Shown: positions 3,905 to 64,000, counted from the stretch's first letter. The stretch: DNA of 64,000 nt from Chrysiogenes arsenatis DSM 11915 (GCF_000469585.1 NZ_AWNK01000004.1:40311-104310); one strand, 5' to 3'. The notes: generated by a model not told the origin, from the sequence alone. Numbers and translations: made by a program.

Positions 3905-3912
3905 CGCACATC

Positions 3913-5379: not shown

Positions 5380-5396
5380 CCGATAGCGAGTTATTT

Positions 5397-23857: not shown

Positions 23858-24491
23858 ATTTTTCCAAATAGCTGGCGATAGCTTTTTTAAGCCAGTCTAA
23901 CGTAATATCGTTGCTGATTAAAAAGAGGTATCCGCTTGCATTAAAGTGTTCGAGGTGAAAAACCGTCTTAAAATAAATCGCATACGAATTCTGCACTTCA
24001 AAAGCAGAATTCAGCGATGTGTGAATTTGATCTTTCACAAAAAAACGGGGTGGCGAATACGTCACAACATCATCCAGCAACTCAGCAATTTTACTGATAC
24101 ATGCCCCGATGACGATATTACTTACTTCAATCAATCCCTCTTTTTCAAGCACATCGACATCAGGATAATCTGCGATAATGGTGTTGCTGCTGTCAAATAA
24201 CCGCAGAAGCTTCTTCCCTTCGCCATGGGGAAAGAGAAGCAGGCTTGAGCCGCTAAACTTACCACTGAAAAACTGCGTAATCATACTCATATCATTGACA
24301 TCGGGTATTTCTTTGCGAATGCAGCGGAATACCTCTGCAAATGGGATGACCTGAATGACAGGCACCGTCAGCGTGACATGCTGATCAATAACATCTGAAA
24401 TTCCGGCAGCCGCTTGCCCAAAAGAGATATTCATAATTTCTTGCAGAACATCCCGCTCTATTTCATTTAAGTAGCTTTTCTCTGCGTCCAT
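23850..24491 (-). CDS. CheC-family CheY-P phosphatase-like protein
   Basis: Two copies of the CheC signature [D/S]xxxExxN-x22-P. The first is DVLQEIMN followed by 22 residues then P. The second is a slightly degenerate EVSN followed by 22 residues then P. Confidence 0.75.
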   Translation of the reverse strand: MDAEKSYLNEIERDVLQEIMNISFGQAAAGISDVIDQHVTLTVPVIQVIPFAEVFRCIRKEIPDVNDMSMITQFFSGKFSGSSLLLFPHGEGKKLLRLFDSSNTIIADYPDVDVLEKEGLIEVSNIVIGACISKIAELLDDVVTYSPPRFFVKDQIHTSLNSAFEVQNSYAIYFKTVFHLEHFNASGYLFLISNDITLDWLKKAIASYLEKYA

Positions 24492-36502: not shown

Positions 36503-36504
36503 GC

Positions 36505-38652: not shown

Positions 38653-38655
38653 TTC

Positions 38656-40536: not shown

Positions 40537-40548
40537 AAAACCACACCA

Positions 40549-41433: not shown

Positions 41434-41437
41434 AATT

Positions 41438-43027: not shown

Positions 43028-43063
43028 CGTCAACCTCTTTGTATCGGCATAGATGGCCATGGC

Positions 43064-43121
43064 TCAAAAAAATATAAACTTACCACCGTAAACTCCATTT
43101 ATTATAGAGATTACGGTGGTG
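43064..43121 (-). terminator. Hairpin plus U-tract between sapC and the tolC-like gene (terminator or attenuator)
   Basis: 10-bp stem ACCACCGTAA (43082-43091) / TTACGGTGGT (43111-43120) with a 19-nt loop. On the minus strand it is followed by AAGTTTATATTTTTTTGAG. Confidence 0.45.
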
Positions 43122-43128
43122 AATGTTT

Positions 43129-43875
43129 TTATGACTCAGCGATTACAGGCTCTGTTTCACCTGGCTTCAGGCTCGTCTGCCCATCTTTTAGCATCGCCAA
43201 GCGTTCAAGTTGGCTGAGTGAGGTTAAATGAGCAAAGATAGGCGCAAAGTAGCGCTTTTCGCGTATTTCAAGAAAGCGCTTATCGGAAAGATTATTCAAA
43301 CGCTCCTCATTGATCACATAACAACCAGTTACGTTGCGAATCTGCCCACCGTAGCGCACACGCATACTGAGCGGAGTAAAGAGATTATTTTCAGCCATGA
43401 ACGTACAGAATGCCTTCGTGAAGATCTCCATTTGTTGCATTTCGCCAAGGTATTTTTTTACATTGTCGATGATCACGGTTGGCTCACCTTTTTCAAACAA
43501 CGCTTGGCCATCTTTTGTCCCAACACAGTCCGCATCTTCATCAATGCAAACTGTAAATTGATCAGCTTGATCACTTTTAGCGAGGGCAAAAGGGTAACGG
43601 CGGATAATGGCTGGCACATATGAAGCCTTCCAACTCCCATCTTCAGCGATAAATAGATTTTCTCCGGCATCAAGGCCAAACATCACAACAGGCTTAAATT
43701 CATCCTGCTCTTTGTCTTCAAGGAAAACAATCGGATACACCGATGCCGCCCGAGCAAATTCATGCACCATGAGTGACGCAATATGAAACTTACTGGCAAA
43801 GGCAAAGCTGCTAATAGGTGTCACTTTTGTCTTCGCATGTTTGTCCTTGTTAAGCGGAACCAATTTTTTAAACAT
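43129..43875 (-). CDS. SapC-family protein
   Basis: The N-terminal pattern LVPLNKDKHAKTKV...F......H...L...EF..AA..YPIVFLED and ~250-aa length match SapC-family proteins as I know them. The gene starts 26 nt after the giant-gene stop. Confidence 0.75.
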   Translation of the reverse strand: MFKKLVPLNKDKHAKTKVTPISSFAFASKFHIASLMVHEFARAASVYPIVFLEDKEQDEFKPVVMFGLDAGENLFIAEDGSWKASYVPAIIRRYPFALAKSDQADQFTVCIDEDADCVGTKDGQALFEKGEPTVIIDNVKKYLGEMQQMEIFTKAFCTFMAENNLFTPLSMRVRYGGQIRNVTGCYVINEERLNNLSDKRFLEIREKRYFAPIFAHLTSLSQLERLAMLKDGQTSLKPGETEPVIAES

Positions 43876-43901: not shown

Positions 43902-46900
43902 TTAAAACTCAAATTCTTCCTCTGTGTAGAAGTCGAAAATGAAACTATCTTGAATACTTGAGCCAAAGCTCGAAAACTGGAAGTCTCCATAGAAGTTAAC
44001 CACCTTGCTGGAAGTATACGGCATTTGCAGGTTGAAACCTGGCTCTAAGCCTACTGGCGCTTGCTGCATAAATCCAAAGTCGAAGTTGATGCCACCAAAC
44101 ATTCCGTCAGAGATGCCAAGATCGCTCAAGTTCATAAAGGAACTCATGGTGGCTTTCTGTAAACGTGACAAGCTTGCATGATCAAGGAATGTTGTCGCAT
44201 TGTGCAAACGCAGAGCATCCATATTTTCTATCGATAATTCTTGGATTGTTTTACTTGCACTAGCCGAAGCGCCTCCCCCTTGAGATCCACTGAAGCGCAC
44301 TGACTCAAAAGCACTCAATTTGAATTCCGCTCTCACTGGACCATGAACAACGGCGTGATTACCCACAGAAATCACGTACACTCGCTGATCAATACCACGG
44401 ATACCAAATATATAGCTATCACCAGTAGCATCATCAACAACACTATACAGTTGCCCAGGACCGACAATGCCATGAATCTGCGCTGCATCTATCTTCAGTA
44501 AGTCAGCGCGGATAGCTTCAAGTTGAGGTATCAGGCTTGCTACTGGCTGATCAATAAAAAACGGTATCGTCTTGATAAACACCTGATTGGCAACAATATT
44601 GGCTGCTTGTGTCCCGAGCGAACTCTGGATACGATATTCCGAACTTTCAAGCCACACATCACCACCCGTCGCAACGTGAGCAATCAACAAAATACTATCG
44701 GTCGAGGTAAAGTAAATATCGCCTCGCTCTGATAATGTCTGTGCACTTGCTTTCATCTCTATGACCGGAGCCGTGTAACGAACTTCCCCCTGCCCCGTCA
44801 GCGACAGAGTGGCCTCTTGCACAATACTTTTTCCAGATGAAAGGACAACGGTACTATCGACGCCTGAGATATTCATAGCAAGAATCAGTGAACCATGTAC
44901 GGCATGGAGTTCGATAGTGCCATGACTACTCGTTCCATTCAGCATTGAATCCGTAATTTCTTCAACAAGAGCTTCATTGGTCATCCGCAGCACCGTTAGC
45001 TCACCGAACTGGTCATTATCACCAATGCGCAAATCTTCTTGGGCGGCAAGGAAGATACCACCATGACCAATATCCGCACTCAGTGAATCGACTTCAACCA
45101 CAAAAGGACGCCCTGATTCACCAAGTTGACTACCAGTAACCCGCAGATACTTTGCTAGGATATTCACGGTACTTGAAGGAGCACTGGTTATGACGCCACC
45201 AACCAGACTGACCGCAGTTGGAGTTGTTACATGAGAGATGGACATACTGTGAGTTGCTTCGATGCGAATATTGTTCTGAGTTTGCAATAGAGCTTTAGCT
45301 GTCATGGAGACTGATTGGGCACTAATGTCGAGCGTCGCATCTCCTGTAATATGAACCAGACTGTCGATAAACTCCACATTGCCGTTCCGCGCTAACAACG
45401 ACACATTACCACTGCTGGCAATGTCGCTCTGCACGATAATGGATCCATTTTCAACTTCTATTTGTAAGTGCTCGCCAGAGAAATTCAACGCACCATCAAG
45501 TATAAAGTTTCGCTGCTCACCGGAAACGCCTGCCTGCACCATTATGACAGTTACGGTGTCGGTTGCCAATTCAAGCTCAGACAAACGCAGATCACCACTA
45601 GTGGTAATGGTATTTAACCCCGCTATGGTGAATACCCCCTGCAGGGTAGTAGTCCCGCCACTGTGAGCACTTAGATCGCCACCAACCGTGAGGTTTCCTT
45701 CAATTGTCAAAGTTTCATCGGTTTTGATAGTCGTGTCACCGGTGATAGTGATTGCATCGCTGAGTATTACTGCTCCGGTTCCGGTGATAGCAAGGTCGCC
45801 GCCAATCTCTAGTGTGCCTTCGACGGTAGTTGCTCCGCCGACTGTCAGGGTAACATTGGCGCTGGTGAAAGTTCCTTCTATCAGCAGGGCATCGGTTGAT
45901 GTTAGTTCAGTACTTCCTTCAACGATAAAGATTCCGTCTAGGATGCTCTCGCCTGCACTGCTTGTGGTAAGGGCGCCACCAACAGTGAAGTTTCCTTCAA
46001 GTGTCAGGTCAGCATCGGTCTCGATAGTCGCGTCACCAATAATAGTGATTGTATCGTTGAGCATCACCGCTCCGGTTCCGGTGATAGCAAGGTCGCCGCC
46101 AATATCTAGTGTGCCTTCGACGGTAGTTGCTCCGCCGACTGTCAGGGTAATGTTGGCGCTGGTGAAAGTTCCTTCTATCAGCAGGGCACCGGTTGATGTT
46201 AGTTCAGTACTTCCTTCAACGATAAAGGTTCCATCTAGGATGCTCTTGCCAACACTGCTTGTGATGAGGGCGCCACCAACAGTGAAGTTTCCTTCAATCG
46301 TCAGGTCGGCATCGGTCTCGATAGTCGCGTCACCGCTAATGGTGATTGCATCGCTGAGCATCACCGCTCCAGTTCCGGTGATAGCAAGGTCGCCGCCAAT
46401 ATCGAGCGTACCTTCGACTGTAGTTGCTCCACCGACTGTCAGGGTGACGTTGGCACCGCTGAAGGTTCCGGTAATCGATAAGTCTGCTTTCGCATCGATA
46501 GTCGTGTCACCGCTAATGGTGATTGCATCGCTGAGTATTACTGCTCCGGTTCCAATGATAGCAAGGCTGCCTGCAACATCCAGCTCACCTTCGATAGTGG
46601 TTGTTCCGCCGATTGTCAGGGTGACATTGGCGCTGGTGAAAGTTCCTTCTATCAGCAGGGCACCGGTTGATGTTAGTTCAGTACTTCCGTCAACGATAAA
46701 GGTTCCATCTAGGATGCTCTTGCCAACACTGCTTGTGATGAGGGCGCCACCAACAGTGAAGTTTCCTTCAAGTGTCAGGTCGGCATCAGTCTCGATAGTC
46801 GCGTCACCGCTAATGGTGATTGCATCGCTGAGCATCACCGCTCCGGTTCCGGTGATAGCAAGGTCGCCGCCAATATCTAGTGTGCCTTCGACGGTAGTTG

Positions 46901-49900
46901 CTCCGCCGACTGTCAGGGTAACGTTGGCGCTGGTGAAAGTTCCTTCTATCAGCAGGGCACCGGTTGATGTTAGTTCAGTACTTCCGTCAACGATAAAGGT
47001 TCCGTCTAGGATGCTCTTGCCAACACTGCTTGTGATGAGGGCGCCACCAACAGTGAAGGTTCCGGTAATCGATAAGTCTGCTTTCGCATCAATGTTGATG
47101 TCACCGTCAATGGCTATTGCATTACTGAGTATCACCGCTCCGGTTCCAGTGATATCAAAGTTGCCAGCAACATCCAGCTCACCTTCAATAGTGGTTGCTC
47201 CACCAACTGTCAGGGTGACGTTGGCACCGCTGAAGGTTCCAGTAATCGATAAGTCTGCTTTCGCATCGATGTTGGTGTCACCGTCAATGGCGATTGCATT
47301 ACTGAGTATCACCGCTCCGGTTCCAGTGATGCCAAGGTTGCCAGCAACATCCAGCTCACCTTCGATAGTGGTTGTTCCGCCGACTGTCAGGGTGACCTTG
47401 GCACCGCTGAAGGTTCCGGTAATCGATAAGTCTACTTTCGCATCGATGTTGGTGTCTCCGTCAATGGCGATTGCATTACTGAGTATCACTGCTCCGGTTC
47501 CAGTGATATCAAAGTTGCCAGCAACATCCAGCTCACCTTCAATGGTAGTTGTTCCTCCGACAGTCATGGTGACGTTGGCACCGTTGAAATCTCCGTCAAT
47601 CGTCAGGGCTGCATCAGTATCGATAGTCGTGTCACCGGTGATAGTGATCGAATCGCTGAGCATTACCGCTCCAGTTCCGGTGATGCCAAGGTTGCCGCTA
47701 ATATCCAATGTGCCAGCGACTGCGGTTGTTCCACCGACTGCCAAGGTGACGTTGGCGCCAGTAAAGGTTCCGATAATCGCCAAGCCTGCTTTCGCATCGA
47801 TGGTCGTGTCACCGGTGATAGTGATCATATCGCTGAGCGTTACCGCTCCGGTTCCGGTGATGCCAAGGTTGCCGCTAATATCCAGTGTACCAGCGACTGC
47901 GGTTGTTCCACCGACTGTCAGGGTGACATTGGCACCGCTGAAGGTTCCGATAATCGCCAAGCCTGCTTTCGCATCGATAGTCGTGTCACCGCTAATGGTG
48001 ATTGCATCGCTGAGCGTTACCGCTCCGGTTCCGGTGATAGCAAGGTTGCCTGCAACATCCAGCTCACCTTCAATAGTGGTTGCTCCACCGACTGTCAGGG
48101 TGACGGCGGCGCCGGTAAAGTCTCCTTCTATCAGCAGGGCACCGGTTGATGTTAGTTCAGTACTTCCTTCAACGATAAAGGTTCCGTCTAGGATGCTCTT
48201 GCCAACACTGCTTGTGATGAGGGCGCCACCAACAGTGAAGTTTCCTTCAAGTGTCAGGTCGGCATCGGTCTCGATAGTCGCGTCACCGCTAATGGTGATT
48301 GTATCGCTGAGCATCGCCGCTCCGGTTCCGGTGATAGCAAGGTCGCCGCCAATATCGAGCGTACCTTCGACGGTAGTTGTTCCTCCGACTGTCATGGTGA
48401 TGTTGACACCAGTGAAATCTCCATCTATCGTCAAGTCTGCTTTCGCATCGATGTTGGTGTTGCCGTCAATGGTGATTGCATTGCTAAGTGCAACGTTTCC
48501 GGTTCCGGTGATGCCAAGGTCGCCGGTACTCACCAGCCTACCTTCGACGTTAGTTGCGCCTCCGACAGTCATGGTGACACCACCGCCGGTGTATCTCCCT
48601 TTAAGTGTTAAATCATTTGTGGCAGAAAGGTTGCTACTTCCTGTTGTGCTAAAAGTACCGCGCAAGATACTTGCACCATCGCTGTTCGCGACGAAGTCGC
48701 CAGCAACGGTTAACTCGCCTATGATTGTCAGGTCTGCTTTCGAATCGATGGTCGTGTCACTGCGCAGCTTGAAATCACCAATAAGAACCATATTGCCCTG
48801 ACTGTTGATTGTACTGGTGCCGCTTACCGTGAGTGACAGCGCACTTGCCTGATTGCTGGTGAGCGCTCCAAGGGTATCAATGTGCAACGTTCCGGCAACT
48901 GCATTTCTACCAAAGAGGTACGTGTCGCCATCTATAAAGAGCGTCGCATCACCGTTGAGCGTAGTGACGTTCAGGCTCGCAATGCGCACCTCGCTCTGAG
49001 TATTTGCGCCAAGGGAAATATCGCCATTGGTGGCGCGCATGGTGGTTTTGCCACCAAGTCGCAATACATCATCGGTATCATTGGCCAGTGCTATTGATTG
49101 GGCGGTGAATGAGTTATCGCCCGTCACGATAAGCTGTGTACTGGCGCCAGCGGTAATACTCTCTGGCGTAGTCACATTAAGGCGTCCCGCCGTATTGCTG
49201 CCTACAAACGTCACGGCATTATCAAGTTCCAATACCACTGCGCCAGCACTGTTGACCGTCAAGGTTCCGGCAGAGAAAAAGTCACCAACAGCATTGCCAA
49301 GACGAATTTCCCCGCCAGAGAATGCGGCATGACCTGTAATCGTAAGTTGTGCTTGCGTCAGGTTGGAAAGCACATTGACCGCTTGCGCACGAAGATCTCC
49401 ACCGACAGTGATATTCGATAGGGTTAAATTGTTGGCAGCCTTCAAATGGACATTTTTGGCTTGATGCACCGTCACGGCACCACCAAAGTTATGACTATTG
49501 TCAAATACAATATCCGATGCCGCATCAGCCGTGAGCTTTGTGATTCCCGTGACCGACAACTTGCCCGTCGCGCCATCATTAAGAGAACCCGATACCACCA
49601 GTTCTAGTGTTTTAGCAGTGCTTTCCCCCGCTAACACCATATCGCCATCGTGTGTTATGCGCACATTGCCATTGCTCACAAAGGTCAGAGTGCCAGTAGT
49701 GAAGGAATCGGTATCGATAGTAACGGCACTGCCTGAGAAACGGGAATTCTCTTCAACCGCAATCTGCGCCCCCTCTAGAGTACTCAGCTCATGAACCGCT
49801 GTCGCAACAAGATTGCCGGTGACGGTCAGATTTGCCAGTGTCAAGGTATTCACATCGCTGAGTGTTACATTCCGAGCGCCGAGCACGGTCACTGCGCCAC

Positions 49901-55900: not shown

Positions 55901-58900
55901 GAATTAACTGGTCGGCACGGATCATAGCCTGATCAACAGTGGCGCCTACAATATCTGCCGTAGTGGTTACGCTGACGAAGTCACGCACGCCATTATTACC
56001 ACCGCGAATCCAGATATTTTCGACCACCAAACGGTCATTACTGACAACCGCTACGTTGCCTGCATCAAGGAGGATATCCCCCAGAATCAGGGCACGGCCA
56101 CTTTGATTCAGTGTCAGATCGCCAGAGGCCAATTCTGCATCAATACGACCCGCTTGCGTGCGCAAACTCGTAGCCGTCCCCAACGACAAGTGCAGCTGCT
56201 CTACCGCAATGGCTGGGGTATTTTCATCGATATTTTGCACCCTACCCGGTGTGATCAAATGCACGTAACCACTACTAACAAGAGTGCCAATAGCAATTTG
56301 CGCCTGAGCCGCGTTCACGGCAACCGTGTCACCAACATTGAAGCCCTCACCCAGCACCGTCTGCACTTCCAGCGTCAGGCGATTCTGGCTCACATCACCA
56401 CTCAGTTGAGCGTCTACTACCCGCAAATTGCCGGTATTTGTCAGGGTGACCAGCATGTCCACCGCATTGACAAGCGAAAGATCAAGGTTGCCCACATGGC
56501 TGATATCCATAGTGCTCCCCGTGCCAGAAAGCTTCAGCGACTGAACATCGTTCAGCACCAGCGTTGCTGTACCACCAGCCGCAAGGTGGAGCGTTTCGCC
56601 CTGCAAGTAAGCCCGTGCCATCAAAGTATCACCAGTAAAGCTCGCTTGCTGTATCAGATCCCCTTGGGTACTGATAAGCGTAACGGTATTTCCCGCACCA
56701 ATCCCTTCGACAAAGCTACTGGCATCCAGTACGATATCACCCGTATTGGCCTGCAGGGTAATATGGTGGGCATATACCTCACCCAAAATATGCAGATGGT
56801 GCTGCGCCTCCACTACCACTTGGCCGTCAACCAGCGCGGCACTACCAATTTGGCCTGCGAGCGAAGCATCTTGCGCACTGTTCAGGCTAATGTTGCTCGC
56901 CAGCAGGGTGGAAGTATTCGCAAGCGCAAGCTCACCAGCGATTAAGGACAAACTCTCTGCCGTTAAAATCGATTGCGAAGCAAGTACGCCCGAACCTTCC
57001 ACGGCCGCTTGCCCCTGCACACTCAGCAATCCACCAGCTTCCACTGTCAGCGCCTGTGTCGCCGTTACTAAGCCGCGCAAATCGACAGCACCGGCACTCT
57101 CCAAACGGATATTCCCCGCCTGCAATGATTGCCCCGCAAAAGCCGCTTGTTCTTGCACCTGACTTTCAAACCCAGGCACCTGCTCTGCACGCCCCTCTAA
57201 ACCATACGTATTCTGTGTTTCCCACTGAGTTACCGTTTCATCTACAACGGTAGCGACTTGGGTTGTAATGGCGCCATACTGCGAAACAAGCTGGGTGACA
57301 TCGTTCGGCTCGTACACCACCTGATAATGTAATTTCATACGCTGATCGCGCAAATCTGTGGTATTCGAAGTCCAGTCATAGGTGTAATCGGTAAAGGTTT
57401 CAAGTGGGGCATTTTTCGTTTGCCAGTCATCAATATGATAGAAAATTGACAACGTCGTATCGAGGCCAGTACCTGGAACTAATGCAGTATCATGATGTTT
57501 CCAAGAGAAACCAATTTGTAGAGTTCCATAAAGGTCACCACTAACTAGGCGACTAAATATATCAAGCTTTTCTCTTAACGATACATGACCACTTGCAACG
57601 TGCGAAGCGTGGTCTTGAATAGAATTGCTAAAATTATCAATAGAATTAAAATAATGGGCTGTATAAATATGACGAGGACTCATACTTGTGTTCCATGAAT
57701 ATGTAACAAGTCTGTCGATTAAATTGGAGTACAGTGTACTTTGGGTAGCGTCAAGTGTTGCAATACTTGTATTAGGATCAAGTTCAGCATCAAGTAGTGT
57801 AGAAAAATTCTGTTTCAATAACTCCATCATGCTTCCAGCAGTTGGAGTTGTGTAGTTTTCCCCTACTATAACTATATAGATTGCGCTTGTTTCTGGTGTA
57901 TAGAGATCAGCTATGCGATAGCTCCCCGCATACTGATTACTACGCGGAGTAGTAACCACTACGTTCATATTGCCCGTATTATTAATGAGCGCCTCTACAA
58001 AACGGTTATCGGCGCGGATGAGCTGGGTTGCCGGTTCACTAGGAGTAAACCCTGCCGTTACAACATTTGAATTGATTCCATAGTCCACTGCCCACGTTGG
58101 CAGTAGACCGGAACTGAATCCAGCGCTACCCACGACGCTATATTCGCGACTACCACCACCCACATAGGTTACATCCCAATAGGCAGGGTCATTACCATCA
58201 ATCACCTCATTGGCGGCGCTAATGATATCAGGAAAAGGAATAACACCCGTCCACTGCGATGCTGCCTGAGTATATTTAACCTGCGCAACGTCTTTGAAGT
58301 TTCCAACGAATTCACCCAAAAGATCGCCACCAGCTACCGGTGAGCTAAACAGCGGTACATACCCCAGCGTGTCGGCGACTGCCATTTTCTGCGCGTCGCT
58401 TAAAGCGGCAAAAGTTGTTCCAGCGGTGGGCGCACTGAGGCCATAGTTCCCCCAGACAATATTCTCATTGGTGTAGTGCGTTCCGTGCACAAAGCTCGCT
58501 TGAGTGTGACCAACGGCATTGCGATAAGTGACAGTAACCCCAAGTTCAGCCGCCGATTTCCATGTGCCACTATTATTGCCATTCATTGTGGTGTCGTTTA
58601 CCAGATATTGTGGCCCACCTTGCGACACAACGCGCAAGATATCGGCCTCAGCTCCCTGCGGCAGGCTGATCAACATATCGCGCCAACCGGCAACATCGAC
58701 GGAAGTCACCTGTTGCGCATTCCCATGCCATGACGGAGTATGGGCAGTAGCCGTCGCGGTGCCGTTCGTAACCGTCACTTTCTGTGCATTGCTGTAACTG
58801 AACTGAAACAGTGGCTTGTACCCCAGATAGTTAAGCACAGCCTGACGTTGCGCCTCGTTTAACTGGTCAAAACGGGTGTTGGCACTTGGTGCCGTCGCCG

Positions 58901-61900
58901 TGCGGTTCGGCAGGAGTTCGGTAGCCGCATTGTTCCAGTTGACTACACTGTTCTGATAATCCTGCCCTTCGATAAAGAATTCTTTGAAGTTGGTGCCATT
59001 ATGGTAGCCGGTCTGCTCCAGCGCGACATTCATCATGACATATTCGTAGCCGACCGTCACACGCGACTGCGAGACTATTTCCATCCTGGTGGTTTCCGAC
59101 CAGACAATTTTGGGAATGGTTATCGTGCCAACAGCAACACTCTGCGTGCCGGTTACAATTGGCACAAAAGTTATTTGCGTGATCAAGGTTGGCACACGGA
59201 TCGTCCGCTCCTGGGTGCCAGCAATACTCGCTTGGAGTATCAAATCGCCTCCGGTCTGAATATTGAGGTCACGGGCGGCGGTGGCTCCGCCGATACCCAG
59301 CACATACACATTACCAGCCGCCTGCAGGCTCGCGGTGGTTTGTGCCGCTTGCAATGCAACATGACCAAGGCTGAGGTCGACACCAGCACGGATATCGATA
59401 TCTCCGCTTGAATCAAGCAGCCCATTCAATACCAGTTGCCCTGCAGTGTTGATTAACAGCCGGGCTACGTTTTCGCCACTTGGGAGATCAGTCACTTTCA
59501 CCTCGCCATTTATGGCGATCGCCTGACTGAGGAGGTGGAGCAATGCACCGGACTGCAAGCGAGCGGAACCGTCTATCAGCAATTCGGCATCAGCTTGGGC
59601 GCGAAGCGTGCTCCCCGTGCCTGTGGTTTCGACCAGTGCGGCCGCAAGTATATTCAGTTGCTGAGCGGCATGGAGCGCAATGGTGTTGGCCGCATGGAGT
59701 TGACCGGCATGGGCGGCTATGCCTTCGCCATCGACGATACCATCGCCGATATAAATGCTGCCAGCACTGGAGTGTAGATGTATGTCGCTGACGAGATGGA
59801 GATACTCTCCACCCTCATTGATTTCAGCACCAAGGCGGGTTTTTACAAAAATATCATCTACTGCGGTGAGTGTCAGCGTGCCGCCAGCGACCCGCAACGT
59901 ATGCCCCGCTTCAACCAATAAGCCAAGATCTGGGTGGCTCGAAACGCCTGTGCCGCCGTGGAGTTCTAGGCTCGTGGTTGCCCAAACTTCGCCCCCAGCC
60001 ATCCAGAGCAAACCACTGGTTGTGATGGTGACATTATTACCCACTATGCGGCTAAAAGGGTTGAATTTCAAAAGGTCATCGGTGCTATCCAGGCCCGTTT
60101 GAAGCTGAATGTTGCCACTCGCCTGAATCAGCGCCAAGCTCGCTACGAGTTCGTTTGTAGTGGTGTTTAATACTTGACCACCCATTTGCAATTGTCCGTC
60201 AAGATTGAATGTCACGTGGGCGATGTTTCCAGCCGACCAGTCGGCTTCGGTTGGGTTTTCCGCGTCAAAGCGGGCACCAGCATAGGCTTGACCGACCCAG
60301 AAGGCATCGTGTGCCGTCACGGTGAGTTCACTGCCATCACCACGGAGGTAGAGCGCTGCATTTCCTGCTAAGTGCAACGTTGCCCCGGCATCAATGTGCA
60401 AATCATTAGCAACTTGTATGGTCACACTGCTTGGATCTAGCTGGCCAACGTGTGGCGTAGTGTTGCCGATATTGATATCGTTTCCAGCCTTCAGCGTTAA
60501 TGATTGCAAGAGGGCAGCGGCTTCAGTCACGTCGGTCTGGTGCGTACTGCGGACGCCAAGCATGGCATTGGCCAGCGACAGGGTATCGCCTGCTTCTAGC
60601 ATTATGGTTCCACCGCGCACATTCCCAGAGAGGGTCAGATTTTCACTGGCAAAGAGTGTTGAGATCACAGAACTGGTGGCGTTGCGGACGACGAGTGCCC
60701 CCTGGAAGTCAATAGTGCGCCCACTTAAACTGACGGCATCGTCGGCTATCAGGTAGCCGTCCGTCGTTACGGTAATGTCGCCTTGGCTCTGAAGCGAGAG
60801 GTGGGTAACGCCAAAGTCACTTCCATCAAGCGTTGAGTTAATGATCAGGTTTTGAGTTGAACCAATTTGCAGTCCGCCAGCCGCCACAATTTGACCAGCA
60901 CCCAACTCCATTTGCGCCGTGGTAGCAACTATAATCTTAACACTTCCGGCAGACTGGACGGTTGCGGGGTCACCGCTGTTGGCTTTCGGCTGTATAACGG
61001 TGCGCCCTTCAGACTCTAACCGGATGGTACTGTGAGCTTCGCTTGTTTTGAGTAGCGCCGCTCCACCAATGGTAATGGTATCCGTAGCGATCAGCGAAAT
61101 ATCGCTATTTGCTCGCACAGTGCCAAGCACGGTGAGAGTTCCGTCAACTTCAAAATGGACGGCTCCGCTCGCTCCGGCATGTTGGGTGTAGAGCGCATCG
61201 ATCTGTTCTCCGTCGGCATTGTAAATAGGTTGTAACTCGCCACCGCTCGCGGCAAAGCCCCAGATTTGCGCATCGGCATCGGCAATCATTTTAAGGATGC
61301 CATCGGGATTTTTCACGACGGCAACGGCGGTTGCTGGCATTTTAATGGCGAGGTTATCATCGCCCGCTCCGTGATTGCGGCCACTGCCACCCTGCAAGGT
61401 CATGGCACCTCCGGCACGCAGGGTACCGCCAACTTCGATTGTGCCGCCACCGGTTGCAGCGGCCTTGCCTCCGAGATAGAGTTGCCCCAGAGCTACAATA
61501 GTCATGGTGGCTTCGGTATTGATCCAGTGAATGCTTTCGGTTGGTACACCACCAGCAATAGTACGGTTTACGCTGCCACCAGCCAGCAGGTTGCCCATCA
61601 CTTCAATATGTCCAGCCGTGGTGAGCGTCAGTGTGCCCGTCTGCGTGTTTGGTTGCGGCGTAGCGCTGATACCCCCGCCAACGGTGATCCCTCCGGCAGC
61701 CGTTACTTGTATGCCAACGCCATCATAAATGCTGTTTTGTGGTATCCCGGCACGTATTTCGGCATTGCCAGACGCCGCGAGTCCGGAATCGATACGGACT
61801 TGTTGATGAAGCGATTCAAGGTAAAGACGATTATTGGCAGCGTTAAAGACAAAACCAGTGCTACCAATATTTCCGCCTGCCACGATTTCGCCGTTTGTGT

Positions 61901-64000
61901 GCACCGTTTGCGAGCCGATCAGTCTGATTTCGCTCCCGCTGCCGGTCGTGGTGATTTGACTGGTGCGAGCGATCAGAATACTCACGCCATCGCTGTTTGC
62001 TCCGTTAAGGTCTATCAGCTCAATACCGCTTTTGCGCACGCCACCGTAAATTTCGACGTTGCCGCTAATGGCGGTCTGCCCTTCCCAATAGACCCAGTGG
62101 TCGGATTGTAAAGAGAGGTCGGCATTAAGCCCGCGAGTTTCAATATTGCCCAGCATAAAGAGGGCGCCTGCTCCGCCAATGTGGATATCCGCATTGTTCC
62201 CAAGCGTCGTGAGTGTGCCCGTGAGCAAGAAACCAAAGTTTGGTTGGGCACTGCCCGTCGCTTGGTAGAGTGGGTGGGGAGTGCCGAGCGTGCTAAAATA
62301 CGCATCAACATAATTTACACTCGAAGCGATACCGGCACGTGGCGTCCCCATATCAAGCGTAAGTTGGCCGCTGGCACTCACGGTGCCAGCAATCCACATT
62401 TCCGCTTGCGAGTAGAGGTAGACACTGGCCTGCGCCCCTGTTTGGTAGGCAATTGATTCATTGAAGGCCACGCCAGCATTGATGGCCGAACCACTGCCGA
62501 TGATCATGGCCTGGCTTGATTCAAGGTAAATGCTGGAATTTTGTGCGAGTGCCGAGATTTCGGATTGAGCGTTCAGGATAAGTTCACCACCCGAAACCAA
62601 ACGGATAGTGCCGCCATTCGGGTTGGTGGCTACGATGCTATCAACAATAACGCTCTGGTTAGTTTGGATAATGACGTCGTCACCACGTGCGGTGAGTCCG
62701 CTCGCGTTTGGATCATTAAAGCCGATATTGACGTCCTCGGCCACTTGCAACACGAGGCTATCAATGCGGTATTTATTGGCAATGAGCATACCCGATTCTA
62801 ACGCCAGTGTGCCGCCATCGGTTGCATCATCGGCAATAATTTGCTGCCAAATATTGGTATTGGAAAAATCTTGTTTACTCAAATCAAGAGTCGCTGCGGC
62901 TCCAACATACTCGTACAGGCCGTATTCGGACTTGGAGTATTGCACTTGCACCAGTGCACCCGTATTGAGGCCCAGCGCACTGTTTTGGCTGCTTTCGGTG
63001 CGTCGATCGGTACCAGTACTATAATCAGCAGTAATGCGTTGCCAAAGAGTCGTATTGTCAAAGGGATTTTCTAGCGTGGTTAGATCGACCTGCTCATTCG
63101 AGCCGAGATAGCGATACAATTCATACGCCACGCCAATGACATCACCGGCTCCGGCGCTAGCCAAGGCGCGTTGTTCGGCGACACTCAGTTCGTCAAAGCG
63201 ATGTGGTGCGGTAATGACGAGCACGTCACCAAGTTGACCAACTTGTCCACCGCCCCACGCTTCAGCGATAACGCTATTGGCTTTGATGTTGAGGAAATCG
63301 TTCGAGGTGGCTGCGCCGAGCTGACGGGTATCAATATGTGGGTTCAGGAACCCAGCAAAGCCCGCATTGAGGCGATATTGGGCACGCGAACTTGATATGC
63401 CAGACTCTACTATTAAACTGGCAACACCAGCATTCACCTGATTGGCATTTGTTTGTACACCATTGGCACCATCAATTATGGAACCGCTAAGAGTAATTAA
63501 CGTTACATTGCCGTTCTCTGAAGCTACCGAGGCGGCGGCATTCTCCCACGCTGTGGGGCGTACCAACACCATATCACCTTCAGTTTGGGTAATGCGGACA
63601 TTGCCTTCGGCACGCACCGCTAATCCACCGTCGCCCTGTGTATTGCTGACGAGATGGATATGGCTCACTTCACCGTTAATGGCATCAAGGTGTACTACGT
63701 TACCCCGAATGCTCATGTACTCAGTTTCACCCTGCCCTTGGCTGACTATCCCCTCTGCAGCGCGGATAGTGACATCGCCGGTAGTTGATTCAACTTTAGT
63801 AGCTTGGAAGAGACTGCTCAGGTTATCGCTCGATATAACTTGAACGAAAATATCATCGCCTGCGGTGATACTGGCAAAGCCTCTATTCCCTTCCATCATC
63901 AAAGTGACACTGCCACCGGCCGTAATGCTCGGCGCTATCCCATAATACGCAGCGCCGTCAGCAAAAGTAACATTGCCCTGGCTGTTTATCGCCATGAACA
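43902..64000 (-). CDS. Giant beta-strand-repeat (parallel beta-helix-like) secreted/surface protein, more than 6,697 aa in window; 5' end beyond nt 64000
   Basis: Uninterrupted 20.1-kb minus-strand ORF that is still open at the window edge (the codon upstream of the ATG at 63995 is sense). It is dominated by imperfect 20-60-aa repeats rich in G, T, A, S, V, L, I, N and D. Some ~100-125-aa modules have the form N.F.G.V.L.G.NV.L.....L.LG...V.G.L.V.A.G.ITQ.G. Confidence 0.9.
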   Translation of the reverse strand, partial: FMAINSQGNVTFADGAAYYGIAPSITAGGSVTLMMEGNRGFASITAGDDIFVQVISSDNLSSLFQATKVESTTGDVTIRAAEGIVSQGQGETEYMSIRGNVVHLDAINGEVSHIHLVSNTQGDGGLAVRAEGNVRITQTEGDMVLVRPTAWENAAASVASENGNVTLITLSGSIIDGANGVQTNANQVNAGVASLIVESGISSSRAQYRLNAGFAGFLNPHIDTRQLGAATSNDFLNIKANSVIAEAWGGGQVGQLGDVLVITAPHRFDELSVAEQRALASAGAGDVIGVAYELYRYLGSNEQVDLTTLENPFDNTTLWQRITADYSTGTDRRTESSQNSALGLNTGALVQVQYSKSEYGLYEYVGAAATLDLSKQDFSNTNIWQQIIADDATDGGTLALESGMLIANKYRIDSLVLQVAEDVNIGFNDPNASGLTARGDDVIIQTNQSVIVDSIVATNPNGGTIRLVSGGELILNAQSEISALAQNSSIYLESSQAMIIGSGSAINAGVAFNESIAYQTGAQASVYLYSQAEMWIAGTVSASGQLTLDMGTPRAGIASSVNYVDAYFSTLGTPHPLYQATGSAQPNFGFLLTGTLTTLGNNADIHIGGAGALFMLGNIETRGLNADLSLQSDHWVYWEGQTAISGNVEIYGGVRKSGIELIDLNGANSDGVSILIARTSQITTTGSGSEIRLIGSQTVHTNGEIVAGGNIGSTGFVFNAANNRLYLESLHQQVRIDSGLAASGNAEIRAGIPQNSIYDGVGIQVTAAGGITVGGGISATPQPNTQTGTLTLTTAGHIEVMGNLLAGGSVNRTIAGGVPTESIHWINTEATMTIVALGQLYLGGKAAATGGGTIEVGGTLRAGGAMTLQGGSGRNHGAGDDNLAIKMPATAVAVVKNPDGILKMIADADAQIWGFAASGGELQPIYNADGEQIDALYTQHAGASGAVHFEVDGTLTVLGTVRANSDISLIATDTITIGGAALLKTSEAHSTIRLESEGRTVIQPKANSGDPATVQSAGSVKIIVATTAQMELGAGQIVAAGGLQIGSTQNLIINSTLDGSDFGVTHLSLQSQGDITVTTDGYLIADDAVSLSGRTIDFQGALVVRNATSSVISTLFASENLTLSGNVRGGTIMLEAGDTLSLANAMLGVRSTHQTDVTEAAALLQSLTLKAGNDINIGNTTPHVGQLDPSSVTIQVANDLHIDAGATLHLAGNAALYLRGDGSELTVTAHDAFWVGQAYAGARFDAENPTEADWSAGNIAHVTFNLDGQLQMGGQVLNTTTNELVASLALIQASGNIQLQTGLDSTDDLLKFNPFSRIVGNNVTITTSGLLWMAGGEVWATTSLELHGGTGVSSHPDLGLLVEAGHTLRVAGGTLTLTAVDDIFVKTRLGAEINEGGEYLHLVSDIHLHSSAGSIYIGDGIVDGEGIAAHAGQLHAANTIALHAAQQLNILAAALVETTGTGSTLRAQADAELLIDGSARLQSGALLHLLSQAIAINGEVKVTDLPSGENVARLLINTAGQLVLNGLLDSSGDIDIRAGVDLSLGHVALQAAQTTASLQAAGNVYVLGIGGATAARDLNIQTGGDLILQASIAGTQERTIRVPTLITQITFVPIVTGTQSVAVGTITIPKIVWSETTRMEIVSQSRVTVGYEYVMMNVALEQTGYHNGTNFKEFFIEGQDYQNSVVNWNNAATELLPNRTATAPSANTRFDQLNEAQRQAVLNYLGYKPLFQFSYSNAQKVTVTNGTATATAHTPSWHGNAQQVTSVDVAGWRDMLISLPQGAEADILRVVSQGGPQYLVNDTTMNGNNSGTWKSAAELGVTVTYRNAVGHTQASFVHGTHYTNENIVWGNYGLSAPTAGTTFAALSDAQKMAVADTLGYVPLFSSPVAGGDLLGEFVGNFKDVAQVKYTQAASQWTGVIPFPDIISAANEVIDGNDPAYWDVTYVGGGSREYSVVGSAGFSSGLLPTWAVDYGINSNVVTAGFTPSEPATQLIRADNRFVEALINNTGNMNVVVTTPRSNQYAGSYRIADLYTPETSAIYIVIVGENYTTPTAGSMMELLKQNFSTLLDAELDPNTSIATLDATQSTLYSNLIDRLVTYSWNTSMSPRHIYTAHYFNSIDNFSNSIQDHASHVASGHVSLREKLDIFSRLVSGDLYGTLQIGFSWKHHDTALVPGTGLDTTLSIFYHIDDWQTKNAPLETFTDYTYDWTSNTTDLRDQRMKLHYQVVYEPNDVTQLVSQYGAITTQVATVVDETVTQWETQNTYGLEGRAEQVPGFESQVQEQAAFAGQSLQAGNIRLESAGAVDLRGLVTATQALTVEAGGLLSVQGQAAVEGSGVLASQSILTAESLSLIAGELALANTSTLLASNISLNSAQDASLAGQIGSAALVDGQVVVEAQHHLHILGEVYAHHITLQANTGDIVLDASSFVEGIGAGNTVTLISTQGDLIQQASFTGDTLMARAYLQGETLHLAAGGTATLVLNDVQSLKLSGTGSTMDISHVGNLDLSLVNAVDMLVTLTNTGNLRVVDAQLSGDVSQNRLTLEVQTVLGEGFNVGDTVAVNAAQAQIAIGTLVSSGYVHLITPGRVQNIDENTPAIAVEQLHLSLGTATSLRTQAGRIDAELASGDLTLNQSGRALILGDILLDAGNVAVVSNDRLVVENIWIRGGNNGVRDFVSVTTTADIVGATVDQAMIRADQLILDAGTGVSGLEVAVNHLQASSDSGDLIVRDRSLAGQTSPGLLLGTVALQGSGLLHISAQDDVRLDKEAQVSGHTIRLQSEEGNVLVEKPDGWSSSADDSVTGYTNLALVATQGSVNLYRQFNQAAGTLEYRASAFAFGNAGSQVTSFDEDMSADKVIIHAVHSGTGVDDSGQTLTLNAAIRANALVELVSDANIMFEGDLLRLDNPAGKIDKLVMRASGLSDIAVVNLEGENPGTPTEGSPTESSPSGFIRVIAPTLMVHVLDMRAKESVSIATTNDLYLNGVIAGLTSLEPLNSLKIEAAHLNLAAGVINASSLIELHADRISMNTGGLLKSETLRVRATDDVTLFTNVKSLDVQTDSGNLTVRQSGVLKVEQMITGNGAIDLRTKDDLTLVDVRSMTNSVTNTISVATLGDIKVGLVSAPAGAVTLDTIGTIQRMEAAPSGAVHIVGDTVSILGATGALDTLNIATSSGEFTRNMVSQSALSLAQLETDVQGDYVVSIPKPILNSQVGLGGDGYVPLTATATGNIWVTDLPLGDGQSLDLASSGGDIVLGSNVGTGNSDISLTGNTVLSSGTITAKNLTVAVTQDTTLSTQTANLNLNTQATAGVALTVQQQGDLAGGTVAMQGGSLNLQVSGNAQLTNLTNSSAGGAELKVDFTLADSTNTSVTLNGVNSANANTHIRSNAALNISGEVSTGATGALNLETTKTVALNLTGNNANQLTVTQLKSEGLTVDNSGDTVLKLDGDINVGAGDFVVNSDTTYLGGTVQGGSLNITGSGATTNLSGRHLFAGEYTIHDSLRIVGSSVSVTSGGDITLGGESAGYYLAANSGGVETTFNLNLSDGGRVIVWSEVGSGSGTAPATGYLAGMNITGASDVTFEEAVTIAGDLVINATGDVIFKKGVTLLDGGSLTIIGGTVGFGSGMVTLSGSTAGNIAITADIVTADADLNIALNGGTIKFNAKVQAATLAITGATVANFNDNVSVSEDLTLIVDAVHLADGKTFTGSDGSELIIGAYSAERNVNIGVSAGDALNISNSMLANSHGFSQFIFGHLEKAGGEWQGNETASGVVTVGASLDAAAMLHTDTTVYGTTLTLKAVATSASNLSLITTHGLTLGNTVVDGNLTILATGDVAQASGTTLATDSLQLDVSGNVTLQNQQALTLLESQVGGDLDISAAGDITQSGSLTVTGWSEIEARSLDGITDYDITLTHVGNNFTGSVALRGKNASLVDQSVSLANVTLSGSLTLDATAGAIIQATGTAISVAGLADLTATTDITLGIDDSDGFTSGLLQLKATDVTLCDTGSAITLTGQSVVTGGVALSSTVGGILANTAAWLEVGGTTLLTVTAGSNVLLENENNRLAGSVTFANAHNVTVHNMLNTQLSASTISGDFTVVTAGNITQSGALDVSGDMALHATGSVVLENLANEFSGNVSLVAASANIVNNRALELGELTITGDMDIYAHGVISQAGVMVISGESRITAASGDERFDITLTDAQNRFVGAVALIGANVTVATNEQLELGVSSIRGDLRVAGQGIVQSGAITVGGVAHLSAGAGVITLDDTSNQFASTVHLHNSGDYAVTLTQDGALELGTSSVGSGSLTIAATGAITQTGALVQALNAGLVTFTTQAGEIALTNSTNNFTGVVLILNDGEHAISIADIDDVKLGAITSNSDLKVHAGGHVSQVDTIEVGGLTDVTAASITLGIENNFSTETMRFSSEGEVIVNVAAGADAIMTGNNTAGSLVLTTVDGAIGTRNETIITVLGHASFTAGSGADITIDEPVTARFGSLQFTTTGAVEISHTGDLLLLQASSTQQLTLHATGNITDGDTGVLHVINATLLRVADEKAIHLDNNHSLGGAIHITNAYDVALKNTQSIHLGAVNVTNDLILETDGSIETEANVTIDVAGVVALLVGDGSDIVIGTESNVTFGALQFSTTGNVVITQSAPLTLAGASFAGGNLSLTAQGTVTNRTDATLTVTGSTTLQATETADIILDNAHNFGGAVTVLGARNVTLSDVNTLTLANLTVTGNLVATAVHELSTLEGAQIAVEENSRFSGSAVTIDTDSFTTGTLTFVSNGNVRITHDGDMVLAGESTAKTLELVVSGSLNDGATGKLSVTGITKLTADAASDIVFDNSHNFGGAVTVHQAKNVHLKAANNLTLSNITVGGDLRAQAVNVLSNLTQAQLTITGHAAFSGGEIRLGNAVGDFFSAGTLTVNSAGAVVLELDNAVTFVGSNTAGRLNVTTPESITAGASTQLIVTGDNSFTAQSIALANDTDDVLRLGGKTTMRATNGDISLGANTQSEVRIASLNVTTLNGDATLFIDGDTYLFGRNAVAGTLHIDTLGALTSNQASALSLTVSGTSTINSQGNMVLIGDFKLRSDTTIDSKADLTIIGELTVAGDFVANSDGASILRGTFSTTGSSNLSATNDLTLKGRYTGGGVTMTVGGATNVEGRLVSTGDLGITGTGNVALSNAITIDGNTNIDAKADLTIDGDFTGVNITMTVGGTTTVEGTLDIGGDLAITGTGAAMLSDTITISGDATIETDADLTLEGNFTVGGALITSSVGKSILDGTFIVEGSTELTSTGALLIEGDFTGAAVTLTVGGATTIEGELDVAGNLAITGTGAVTLSDAITISGDTTIDAKAGLAIIGTFSGANVTLTVGGTTAVAGTLDISGNLGITGTGAVTLSDMITITGDTTIDAKAGLAIIGTFTGANVTLAVGGTTAVAGTLDISGNLGITGTGAVMLSDSITITGDTTIDTDAALTIDGDFNGANVTMTVGGTTTIEGELDVAGNFDITGTGAVILSNAIAIDGDTNIDAKVDLSITGTFSGAKVTLTVGGTTTIEGELDVAGNLGITGTGAVILSNAIAIDGDTNIDAKADLSITGTFSGANVTLTVGGATTIEGELDVAGNFDITGTGAVILSNAIAIDGDINIDAKADLSITGTFTVGGALITSSVGKSILDGTFIVDGSTELTSTGALLIEGTFTSANVTLTVGGATTVEGTLDIGGDLAITGTGAVMLSDAITISGDATIETDADLTLEGNFTVGGALITSSVGKSILDGTFIVDGSTELTSTGALLIEGTFTSANVTLTIGGTTTIEGELDVAGSLAIIGTGAVILSDAITISGDTTIDAKADLSITGTFSGANVTLTVGGATTVEGTLDIGGDLAITGTGAVMLSDAITISGDATIETDADLTIEGNFTVGGALITSSVGKSILDGTFIVEGSTELTSTGALLIEGTFTSANITLTVGGATTVEGTLDIGGDLAITGTGAVMLNDTITIIGDATIETDADLTLEGNFTVGGALTTSSAGESILDGIFIVEGSTELTSTDALLIEGTFTSANVTLTVGGATTVEGTLEIGGDLAITGTGAVILSDAITITGDTTIKTDETLTIEGNLTVGGDLSAHSGGTTTLQGVFTIAGLNTITTSGDLRLSELELATDTVTVIMVQAGVSGEQRNFILDGALNFSGEHLQIEVENGSIIVQSDIASSGNVSLLARNGNVEFIDSLVHITGDATLDISAQSVSMTAKALLQTQNNIRIEATHSMSISHVTTPTAVSLVGGVITSAPSSTVNILAKYLRVTGSQLGESGRPFVVEVDSLSADIGHGGIFLAAQEDLRIGDNDQFGELTVLRMTNEALVEEITDSMLNGTSSHGTIELHAVHGSLILAMNISGVDSTVVLSSGKSIVQEATLSLTGQGEVRYTAPVIEMKASAQTLSERGDIYFTSTDSILLIAHVATGGDVWLESSEYRIQSSLGTQAANIVANQVFIKTIPFFIDQPVASLIPQLEAIRADLLKIDAAQIHGIVGPGQLYSVVDDATGDSYIFGIRGIDQRVYVISVGNHAVVHGPVRAEFKLSAFESVRFSGSQGGGASASASKTIQELSIENMDALRLHNATTFLDHASLSRLQKATMSSFMNLSDLGISDGMFGGINFDFGFMQQAPVGLEPGFNLQMPYTSSKVVNFYGDFQFSSFGSSIQDSFIFDFYTEEEFEF
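45560..48590 (-). repeat. In-frame tandem array of 13 near-identical coding modules (7 x 59 aa / 177 bp and 6 x 99 aa / 297 bp)
   Basis: The short unit is ANVTLTVGG.T..G.LD..GNL.ITGTGAV.LSD.ITI.GDTTIDAKA.L.I.GTF.G. The long unit adds NFTVGGALITSSVGKSILDGTFIV.GSTELTSTGALLIEGTFTS. DNA copies are near-identical, for example GGTGATAGCAAGGTCGCCGCCAAT at 45783 and 46080, 297 nt apart. Confidence 0.85.

Follow-up and report, generated by a model that had tools for sequence, protein, structure and literature searches.

A conserved module with a variable cassette slot in a family of giant beta-helix exoproteins, examined in Chrysiogenes arsenatis

Few bacterial genes are as poorly understood as those for giant fibrous exoproteins, which consist mostly of featureless repeats and offer few experimental handles. 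The largest open reading frame (ORF) of the 64,000-nucleotide (nt) stretch of Chrysiogenes arsenatis DSM 11915 analyzed here (NZ_AWNK01000004.1, 40311 to 104310; hereafter the window) is such a gene. It occupies positions 63995 to 43902 of the minus strand; its 6697 visible residues are those of a beta-helix, DUF5649, filamentous hemagglutinin (FHA)-like exoprotein. The original prediction for this locus, made from the sequence alone, singled out some 690 residues as a non-repetitive insert, possibly acquired as a module and the likeliest site of a functional head. The question is whether this stretch was inserted into the Chrysiogenes gene or belongs to the architecture of the protein. We found that it is a conserved, non-beta-helical module, called here A-B-V-C, shared by giant beta-helix exoproteins that make up a widespread family, and that only its ~160-residue slot V shows turnover.

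The flagged region corresponds to residues ~1593 to 2272 of the giant ORF, between the landmarks GTQERTIRVP (residues 1593 to 1602; window positions 59190 to 59219) and TQWETQNTYGLEGRAEQ (residues 2256 to 2272; 57180 to 57230). Both landmarks, and the two motifs of a duplicated element of ~50 residues (58800 to 58880 and 58341 to 58421), lie where they had been placed. The duplication is real. Alignment of residues 1674 to 1730 with residues 1835 to 1883 gave a Smith-Waterman score of 98, compared with 30.0±5.2 for 500 shuffles, none of which equaled it, and BLASTP returned 38.6% identity (E = 7e-9). The region is also aromatic-rich, as had been noted: before the low-GC patch described below (residues 1603 to 2020), Trp makes up 2.2% of the residues versus 0.3% in the rest of the gene, Tyr 4.1% versus 1.1%, and Pro 4.3% versus 1.0%. 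The corresponding values in the patch are 2.0% Trp, 6.5% Tyr and 3.0% Pro, and Phe is enriched in the region along with these three. The statement that the repeat pattern stops here needs qualification. Residues 1551 to 2250 have no self-similarity besides the duplication, and repeats are found again from about residue 2285, but non-repetitiveness is not unique to the region, as much of the N-terminal part of the giant gene is likewise devoid of BLAST-level repeats. The region is nevertheless the most distinctive non-repeat module of the giant protein.

A word-indexed homolog search with the region gave three fragments only. When 1.84 billion representative proteins were searched exhaustively with phmmer (E ≤ 1e-3), 153 representatives were recovered, and a scan of 185,579 species genomes, one per species, yielded 146 loci carrying the module inside giant ORFs, at identities of 49% or less. 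These loci are spread over many phyla, including Desulfobacterota, Pseudomonadota, Campylobacterota, Chlorobiota, Planctomycetota, Verrucomicrobiota and Cloacimonadota, with Desulfobacteraceae, Vreelandella, Marinomonas, Thiobacillus, Rhodoferax, Azospirillum, Arcobacter, Sulfurovum, Sulfurimonas and Chlorobiaceae among the taxa represented. Where the contig permits it, the ORF holding the module takes up the entire 20-kb locus. A-B-V-C is thus a conserved, alignable landmark at 146 loci, and it could be used as a marker to find and classify giant genes in fragmented metagenomes.

Three conserved blocks and one gap are apparent from the number of homologous clusters that cover each part of the region. 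Module A (residues 1579 to 1800; 58596 to 59261, minus strand) is the conserved core, covered by ~100 clusters and without a match in Pfam, NCBIfam or the PDB. Module B (residues 1890 to 2025; 57921 to 58328, minus strand) precedes the cassette slot and is covered by 20 to 35 clusters from residue ~1890 to 1980 or 2025. Coverage is zero over residues ~2040 to 2180, within slot V (residues 2026 to 2184; 57444 to 57920, minus strand), and rises again to ~36 clusters over residues ~2190 to 2270 in module C (residues 2185 to 2270; 57186 to 57443, minus strand). In all loci A, C and, where detectable, B are present in a single copy each and in constant order. We compared all members of a set of 52, made up of 51 relatives and the Chrysiogenes gene (2652 pairs). 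Module A was detectable in every pair (2652/2652) and module C in 2646/2652, whereas V, taken as the 160 residues before C, was detectable in 602/2652. The A and C modules of Chrysiogenes each match those of all relatives (51/51). The residues that never vary in module A (Q, Y, N, W, L, V and G) do not make up a conserved catalytic set, and module B has four invariant columns (Q, W, G and W) across the 52 members.

As the region is collinear with the giant ORFs of its relatives and shares with them the order A-B-C, it is ancestral to the family rather than an insert acquired by the Chrysiogenes gene. The proposed acquisition as a module therefore does not hold for the whole ~690 residues; it remains applicable to the ~160 residues of slot V, with their turnover and foreign-looking composition. 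A phage origin of module A was considered and rejected, since no relative of it was found in 2.9 million viral contigs. As a separate observation, the giant gene is broken into many consecutive same-strand ORFs of 100 to 1200 residues in three records, L001 (ENA contig_131830), L002 (JGI Ga0494350_0023973) and L069 (Ramlibacter terrae CP053418.1), reflecting either assembly frameshift errors or pseudogenization. Because of such splitting, many database "homologs" resemble short stand-alone proteins.

We then modeled the region with AlphaFold2 (AF2), using an alignment of 88 sequences. The mean predicted local distance difference test score (pLDDT) was 70.6 for the whole region and 83.8 for a model trimmed to A and B. 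The score exceeds 90 over residues ~1638 to 1880 and lies between 89 and 95 over residues ~2198 to 2250; by module, it is 90 to 98 in A, 80 to 90 in the long strands of B, and 89 to 95 in C, which includes a 29-residue strand. The confident parts consist of strands of 17 to 46 residues, hairpins, and short helices that correspond to the AQ..AV..LGY part of each copy of the duplicated element. These strand lengths lack the periodicity of short strands, and therefore the region is not a beta-helix; the beta-helix of the flanks does not continue through it, in line with the original prediction. Long antiparallel strands abound in the models of A, B and C, which correspond to no known fold. A strand at residues 1620 to 1648 is present in the longer model and lost in the A-B model, so it forms only with residues beyond 1925. 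Its loss on trimming suggests that it pairs with more C-terminal strands, perhaps with the 29-residue strand of module C, such that the two ends of the module would meet. No lectin or enzyme, two of the head types that had been envisaged, was recognized by Pfam, NCBIfam, PDB sequence or Foldseek searches of the region. The best Pfam hit, DUF6714, is noise (E = 0.096), the NCBIfam and PDB sequence searches were empty, and Foldseek of the model against the PDB gave no match below E = 1.9. The A-B-V-C module, its cassette slot and the ~60-residue repeat described below are thus new to Pfam and NCBIfam and have no solved structural relative.

Variation in the family is concentrated in slot V, which accepts βγ-crystallin, acidic or unmatched domains. 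In the nearest relatives of the Chrysiogenes gene, L015 (Rhodoferax) and L055 (Polaromonas), the alignment is continuous up to residue 2026 or 2027 and resumes at residue 2184 or 2198, and the slot holds 85 to 95 unrelated residues. Among the 52 members, 21 carry a βγ-crystallin cassette, 17 an acidic "WVDNDDGS" cassette, and 14, including Chrysiogenes, something else. A profile of the first class matches Clostrillin (3so1, E = 2e-17), Flavollin (3hzb, E = 4e-15) and Spherulin 3a (E = 1e-8); its consensus, ...YEHxNYGG...NDxISSxKVWG, describes a complete two-Greek-key domain with an N-D-x-I-S-S motif, the canonical Ca2+ site of microbial βγ-crystallins. The acidic class (WVDNDDGSxW...DDEDEVP...GHD) is unrelated to the first and has no sequence relative in the PDB.

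The two classes are intermixed among scaffolds whose A modules are 58 to 69% identical. L003 and L004, for instance, are both from Desulfobacteraceae and have A modules that are 69% identical, yet the former holds an acidic and the latter a βγ-crystallin cassette. Such mixing among close scaffolds bears the signature of repeated cassette replacement. Between close relatives V evolves two to four times faster than A and C. Its ratio of nonsynonymous to synonymous substitution rates (dN/dS) ranges from 0.09 to 0.68 and does not reach 1 in any of the 11 close pairs, with dS also raised in several of them, indicating that V is functional and under purifying selection. Positive selection in V was rejected on the same values, and recombination is a likelier source of its variation than diversification by point mutation.

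The Chrysiogenes cassette stands apart. We found no homolog of it among the 1.84 billion representative proteins, no match to the V of any relative (0/51) and, against 80 family loci, nothing below E = 2.6; tblastn gave one match at E = 0.8 in phages and none in plasmids. It is not a βγ-crystallin, as it matches nothing in Pfam, the PDB or the class profiles, and it has neither the crystallin motif nor the acidic cluster.

This cassette coincides with the low-GC patch of the original prediction, whose hand counts hold: the six 60-nt lines at 57541 to 57900 have 31.7 to 38.3% GC. The computed profile has its dip here too. The lowest 600-nt segment of the 64 kb, at 57321 to 57920, has 38.0% GC compared with a mean of 49.0% (standard deviation [SD], 2.9%). 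The patch is thus real, although it covers only ~150 to 160 codons (residues 2026 to 2175 or 2184, within 57444 to 57920) rather than the whole region. G+C content at third codon positions (GC3) drops to 0.22 to 0.26 in 100-codon segments of the patch, against a gene mean of 0.495 (SD, 0.07; z = -3.9), and GC-ending codons number 52 where 93 are expected from the amino acid content (z = -6.1). The lowest GC3 value reached in 1000 permutations was 0.33, compared with 0.27 observed, and the 27 other ORFs of the window all lie between 0.44 and 0.56. The dip is therefore mainly synonymous. A two-change-point likelihood scan placed the low segment at residues 2026 to 2175 (57471 to 57920), with a GC3 of 0.233 inside and 0.538 outside. 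This segment coincides with the homology gap (residues ~2027 to 2184), the boundaries agreeing within ~10 codons. The patch is real coding sequence, with no stop in the coding frame compared with 9 to 15 in the other five frames and 10.2 in shuffles. Chrysiogenes is the clearest case in the family of a compositionally foreign cassette, and would document a recent exchange.

Other origins of the patch were considered and rejected. A diversity-generating retroelement is unlikely because no template repeat was found: blastn of 57301 to 58050 against the whole window gave nothing but itself below E = 0.48, in a window whose ORFs were not systematically scanned for reverse transcriptase. An intein or a mobile insertion was discarded since Pfam detects no Hint domain, the boundaries carry no repeats and the giant protein contains no Cys; the sole repeat around the patch is a 15-nt, 87% inverted repeat located away from the boundaries. 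Finally, there is no sign of an embedded RNA or regulatory element. Rfam gave no match, promoter-like sites number 3 versus 2.8 expected and terminator-like sites 1 versus 2.1, and the only other ORFs at the patch, of 46 and 55 residues on the plus strand, do not compete with the coding frame. Elsewhere in the window, the second-lowest GC stretch (23501 to 24491, ~40 to 42% in 600-nt segments) overlaps an ORF of 213 residues with a GC content of 0.417 and an ordinary GC3 of 0.449.

We propose that A, B and C form a conserved display scaffold for an exchangeable domain in slot V, that the Chrysiogenes cassette stems from a lower-GC donor, and that V sets recognition, a reading to which we assign a probability of roughly 55%. 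The giant protein would be exported through a TolC and adaptor apparatus and form a long fiber. About midway along it, A, B and C would build a rigid beta-sheet platform whose two ends meet, the fiber continuing past it, and this platform would expose V. V would in turn determine whether the fiber targets a surface, an ion or a partner cell. In Chrysiogenes the present cassette would have arrived recently by recombination and ousted the ancestral one. The parts of this proposal differ in strength. The A-B-V-C anatomy and the turnover of cassettes are well supported. The Chrysiogenes cassette was probably acquired horizontally and recently swapped in, and it probably sets specificity, the binding role of V being the weakest and least supported step. 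The idea of a functional head is a reasonable one given a conserved scaffold with a variable cassette, and swapping the cassette is predicted to alter the binding or the Ca2+ dependence of the fiber.

Several observations weigh against this proposal. The low-GC cassette was modeled at low confidence (pLDDT 30 to 50), as four helices, and the geometry of a platform displaying V was inferred from secondary-structure strings only. The dN/dS of V is not above that of the flanking beta-helix, and there is no signal of diversifying point mutation. Searches recognized no fold or family of a binding protein, lectin or adhesin, whether in modules A to C or in the cassette of Chrysiogenes. The export and surface localization of the giant protein are read from its neighboring genes. 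No donor of the cassette was found, so the case for a horizontal origin is made by composition and the family-wide pattern alone. Lastly, the two common classes of cassette resemble Ca2+ binders, which fits a role in folding or stability at least as well as one in recognition.

This last point leads to the main alternative, which we consider rather doubtful: slot V might be a Ca2+-dependent clasp for folding or stability. Once exported, the cassette would be folded by extracellular Ca2+, which would lock A-B-C or ratchet the fiber out of its channel in the manner of RTX repeats during type 1 secretion, and the Chrysiogenes cassette would be a substitute or a degenerating version. It would explain why the two dominant classes, one with its N-D-x-I-S-S motif and the other with its "WVDNDDGSxW...DDEDEVP" cluster, are both Ca2+-binder-like despite being unrelated. 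It also agrees with purifying selection on V in the absence of a diversifying signal, and with the TolC and HlyD components of a type-1-like operon. However, it does not account for the Chrysiogenes cassette, which lacks both signatures, nor for the 14 of 52 members that fall in neither class, and it gives no obvious reason why unrelated domains should repeatedly replace one another among close scaffolds.

Less probable still, and in our view unlikely, is that the low-GC patch is native. The ancestral cassette could have diverged in place under relaxed constraint or AT-biased mutation, or the patch could be AT-rich for reasons of translation or mRNA, for instance to bring about a pause during export. 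Within the module V evolves fastest, no donor was found, and the V of the relatives tends weakly toward intermediate GC3, being below the gene mean in 33/51 (median z = -0.44) and below the 5th percentile in 10/51. A strong family-wide GC3 dip in V was rejected, as an unbiased recount showed this weak trend only. By contrast, the shift in Chrysiogenes runs away from the intermediate value (0.23 versus 0.50 for the host) and, at z = -3.8, exceeds that of every other member of the set of 52. The agreement between the composition and homology boundaries also argues against divergence in place, as do scaffolds 69% identical that hold unrelated folds, which indicates that replacement occurs in the slot. 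A role in translation or mRNA finds no echo in the promoter, terminator, Rfam and ORF counts given above. The next most deviant V segments, calculated over the 150 codons before module C, belong to L007, a Rhodoferax metagenome-assembled genome (MAG) (z = -3.2), and L012, a Desulfobacterales MAG (z = -2.8). Both hold βγ-crystallin cassettes, which may be further recent swaps.

That the module might be an enzymatic or toxic effector carried on the fiber, akin to the C-terminal toxin region of CdiA (CdiA-CT) or to the glycosidase domains of giant proteins, is very improbable: giant proteins often carry enzymatic domains (10.1101/2023.11.21.568195) and the Chrysiogenes cassette is relatively His-rich (4.5% versus 1.7%), but no enzyme or toxin family or fold was matched, the invariant residues of module A include no catalytic set, the module is internal rather than C-terminal, and no immunity-like small gene is adjacent.

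Returning to the duplication, its two elements are members of a previously undescribed repeat family of ~60 residues. Copy 1 (residues 1667 to 1736; 58788 to 58997, minus strand) is embedded in module A and copy 2 (residues 1830 to 1885; 58341 to 58508, minus strand) is an extra copy; a hidden Markov model (HMM) of the repeat detects them with E = 6e-28 and E = 3e-23, respectively. Iterated searches seeded with copy 2 collected 208 instances in 150 proteins, and no Pfam model covers the repeat. It has the motif F.EG.DY.N..W...PA..F..L..AQ..AV..LGY.PLY.FSY.N and the consensus tkqfreyFveGvDYsnadidWgsagvaapaadatFaqLsdaQkqaVlasLGYkplYdfsysn. In every relative, module A has one copy integrated into it. 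Copy 2 is found in a minority of them; in most, module A ends at about residue 1796 of the query and B starts at about residue 1894. The distance from A to C is 402 residues in Chrysiogenes compared with 206 to 300 in most relatives, and the presence of the copy 2 stretch accounts for ~100 residues of the difference. Many relatives also have tandem arrays of three to eight copies, ~1400 to 1800 residues N-terminal of module A (for example L003, L004, L008, L033 and L054, at residues ~1200 to 2000 of the locus ORFs). The repeat was also seen in other large proteins, some of them with RTX repeats; further examples of proteins with the element are P0006-P0008, P0094, P0117, P0125 and P0142.

By analogy, A-B-V-C would find its closest functional counterparts in the receptor-binding domain of CdiA, which is central and varies by class, and in those regions of RTX adhesins that bind ligands. 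The receptor-binding domain of CdiA reportedly sits between its FHA-1 and YP/FHA-2 regions. Like A-B-V-C, it is a non-repeat, strain-variable part in the middle of a giant FHA-like exoprotein, with conserved filament flanks and variants exchanged between lineages. The Chrysiogenes protein, too, has FHA repeats, if weak ones. The modules share no sequence or fold similarity. CdiA and FhaB come with a TpsB/CdiB transporter gene, and there is none among the seven genes downstream of the Chrysiogenes gene or in the clusters of Vreelandella andesensis and Desulfosarcina ovata, the upstream side of the Chrysiogenes gene lying outside the window. CdiA has a PT-VENN or toxin domain followed by an immunity gene, whereas the C-terminal 1199 residues of the Chrysiogenes protein contain neither domain and the next gene encodes SapC. 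The N-terminal two-partner secretion domain (Haemagg_act) of CdiA and FhaB has no counterpart in the first 3066 residues of the V. andesensis homolog, which match nothing in Pfam; the N terminus of the Chrysiogenes protein lies outside the window. The cassettes of the relatives, βγ-crystallin or acidic, are not known classes of CdiA receptor-binding domains.

Giant adhesins of the RTX type that are secreted by type 1 systems, such as LapA, MpIBP, FrhA and SiiE, also have ligand-binding regions. As in the Chrysiogenes family, a cluster of non-repeat domains breaks a long repetitive extender and Ca2+-binding modules are involved, and both systems have an outer membrane protein resembling TolC and an HlyD-type adaptor. 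The extender of RTX adhesins is made of bacterial immunoglobulin-like (BIg) domains and not of beta-helix and DUF5649. Their RTX nonapeptides are missing here, with no PF00353 match in residues 1 to 1602, 1579 to 2289, 2273 to 5498 or 5499 to 6697. In place of their HlyB-type ABC transporter, the Chrysiogenes operon has M50-like and SecA-like proteins, and their ligand region is near the C terminus whereas A-B-V-C is central. The Chrysiogenes protein is thus neither of the CdiA type nor of the RTX adhesin type, as it lacks defining features of each.

Phage tail fibers and tailocins combine a conserved scaffold with a receptor-binding domain that is swapped by recombination, leaving mosaic similarity and compositional breaks. 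Slot V is similar in pattern, but module A has no relative in the viral contigs and the cassette no match in phage records. Microbial βγ-crystallins (Clostrillin, Flavollin, Spherulin 3a and Protein S), with their two Greek-key motifs, Y/F-x-H-x-N-Y-x-G signature and N/D-N/D-x-x-S/T-S site, have counterparts in the cassettes of 21/52 members and not in that of Chrysiogenes. Two giant proteins of Chlorobium chlorochromatii, Cag_663 and Cag_665, resemble the Chrysiogenes protein: they are parallel beta-helices, sapC and a tolC-like gene flank them, and their N-terminal regions have an unusual extended beta-sheet and protruding domains without structural match (10.64898/2026.03.19.712371). The giant proteins of the Chlorochromatium consortium are transferred between the symbiotic partners, and a role in cell-cell interaction and a sap-like type 1 export were proposed for them (10.64898/2026.03.19.712371). 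That preprint describes neither the A-B-V-C module, nor a cassette slot, nor a link to SecA-like and M50-like genes; module A is carried by three Chlorobiaceae MAGs of our set (L020, L034 and L064).

The giant ORF itself almost certainly runs on past the window, and its N terminus is probably cut by the window end. A TTC codon rather than a stop precedes its ATG, and the window end is 5 nt away. The protein is collinear with its relatives over residues ~570 to 3300, with an offset of +1500 to +1750 residues, which places at least 1500 N-terminal residues outside the window. In V. andesensis the full-length gene encodes 11,139 residues and module A starts near residue 6364, ~57% along. Together with the upstream TTC and the collinear offset, the ~6360 residues ahead of module A in that protein indicate that the full Chrysiogenes protein may have ~11,000 residues. 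DUF5649 (PF18886) scores 300 bits over 14 stretches of the giant protein and flanks the A-B-V-C region, and Fil_haemagg (PF05594) scores 23.9 bits for a cutoff of 21.5. These two families are the only Pfam matches in the C-terminal 1199 residues.

Downstream of the giant gene, seven genes on the same strand (33697 to 43875, minus strand), which are probably cotranscribed, encode SapC, a TolC-like outer membrane efflux protein (OEP), two HlyD-type adaptors, an M50-like protein, a truncated SecA-like ATPase and a 284-residue ORF, according to Pfam and NCBIfam. They are the presumed export apparatus of the giant protein. The OEP gene is matched at E = 6e-27, and HlyD_3 and HlyD_D23 match the two adaptor genes. 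The M50-like protein is a membrane protein of 715 residues whose N-terminal half is "daptide HExxH"-like. The SecA-like ATPase (652 residues) covers positions 9 to 491 of the 814-position SecA model and hence lacks the C-terminal part with scaffold and wing; it belongs to a large subfamily of such short SecA-like proteins. SapC and the SecA-like ATPase have exact database matches (WP_027389212.1 and WP_051321326.1, respectively), and UmuC was matched as well. There is no ABC transporter among the seven genes, the M50-like protein and the SecA-like ATPase being found in its place. The gene order is shared by the two relatives in which it was compared, V. andesensis (L083, 4064 to 11992; giant gene of 11,139 residues) and D. 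ovata (L084, 2472 to 11983; 9,627 residues), except that in V. andesensis no OEP was seen in the interval from SapC to the first adaptor.

The products of this operon may constitute a previously undescribed machine that exports giant proteins, and we found no paper that combines "SecA-like," "TolC" and "membrane fusion protein." It may prove a more novel lead than the module. The linked SecA-like and M50-like genes hint at the export route and tie this family to the giant proteins of Omnitrophota, which contain SecA-like domains without scaffold and wing that were proposed to export the giant protein itself (10.1101/2023.11.21.568195). A bolder reading, which we consider rather doubtful, is that A-B-V-C is the programmable head of an unrecognized class of cell-surface fibers, in which unrelated small domains would be shuffled between phyla into the slot of a scaffold with a new fold. 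Export of the entire fiber of 10,000 residues would be driven by an undescribed machine spanning the envelope, in which a truncated SecA-like motor, an M50-like membrane protein, a pair of HlyD-type adaptors, a TolC-like channel and SapC would replace the ABC transporter of type 1 secretion.

Two minor features of the giant gene were also noted. The last ~20 residues of the protein (43902 to 43970), SFGSSIQDSFIFDFYTEEEFE, resemble the tail of the Desulfosarcina giant protein (L084, ~1830 to 1900), SSGFSVQERSLFDFQENFD. Homology of the two tails as C-terminal secretion signals was rejected because the match is not significant (E = 0.75), and the resemblance could be that of a shared export signal. 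Long ORFs, of up to 1037 residues, are also present on the plus strand within the repeat region of the giant gene (45688 to 48801, 56103 to 56945 and 61266 to 62111); they are most likely by-products of its repetitive, stop-poor composition and not genes.

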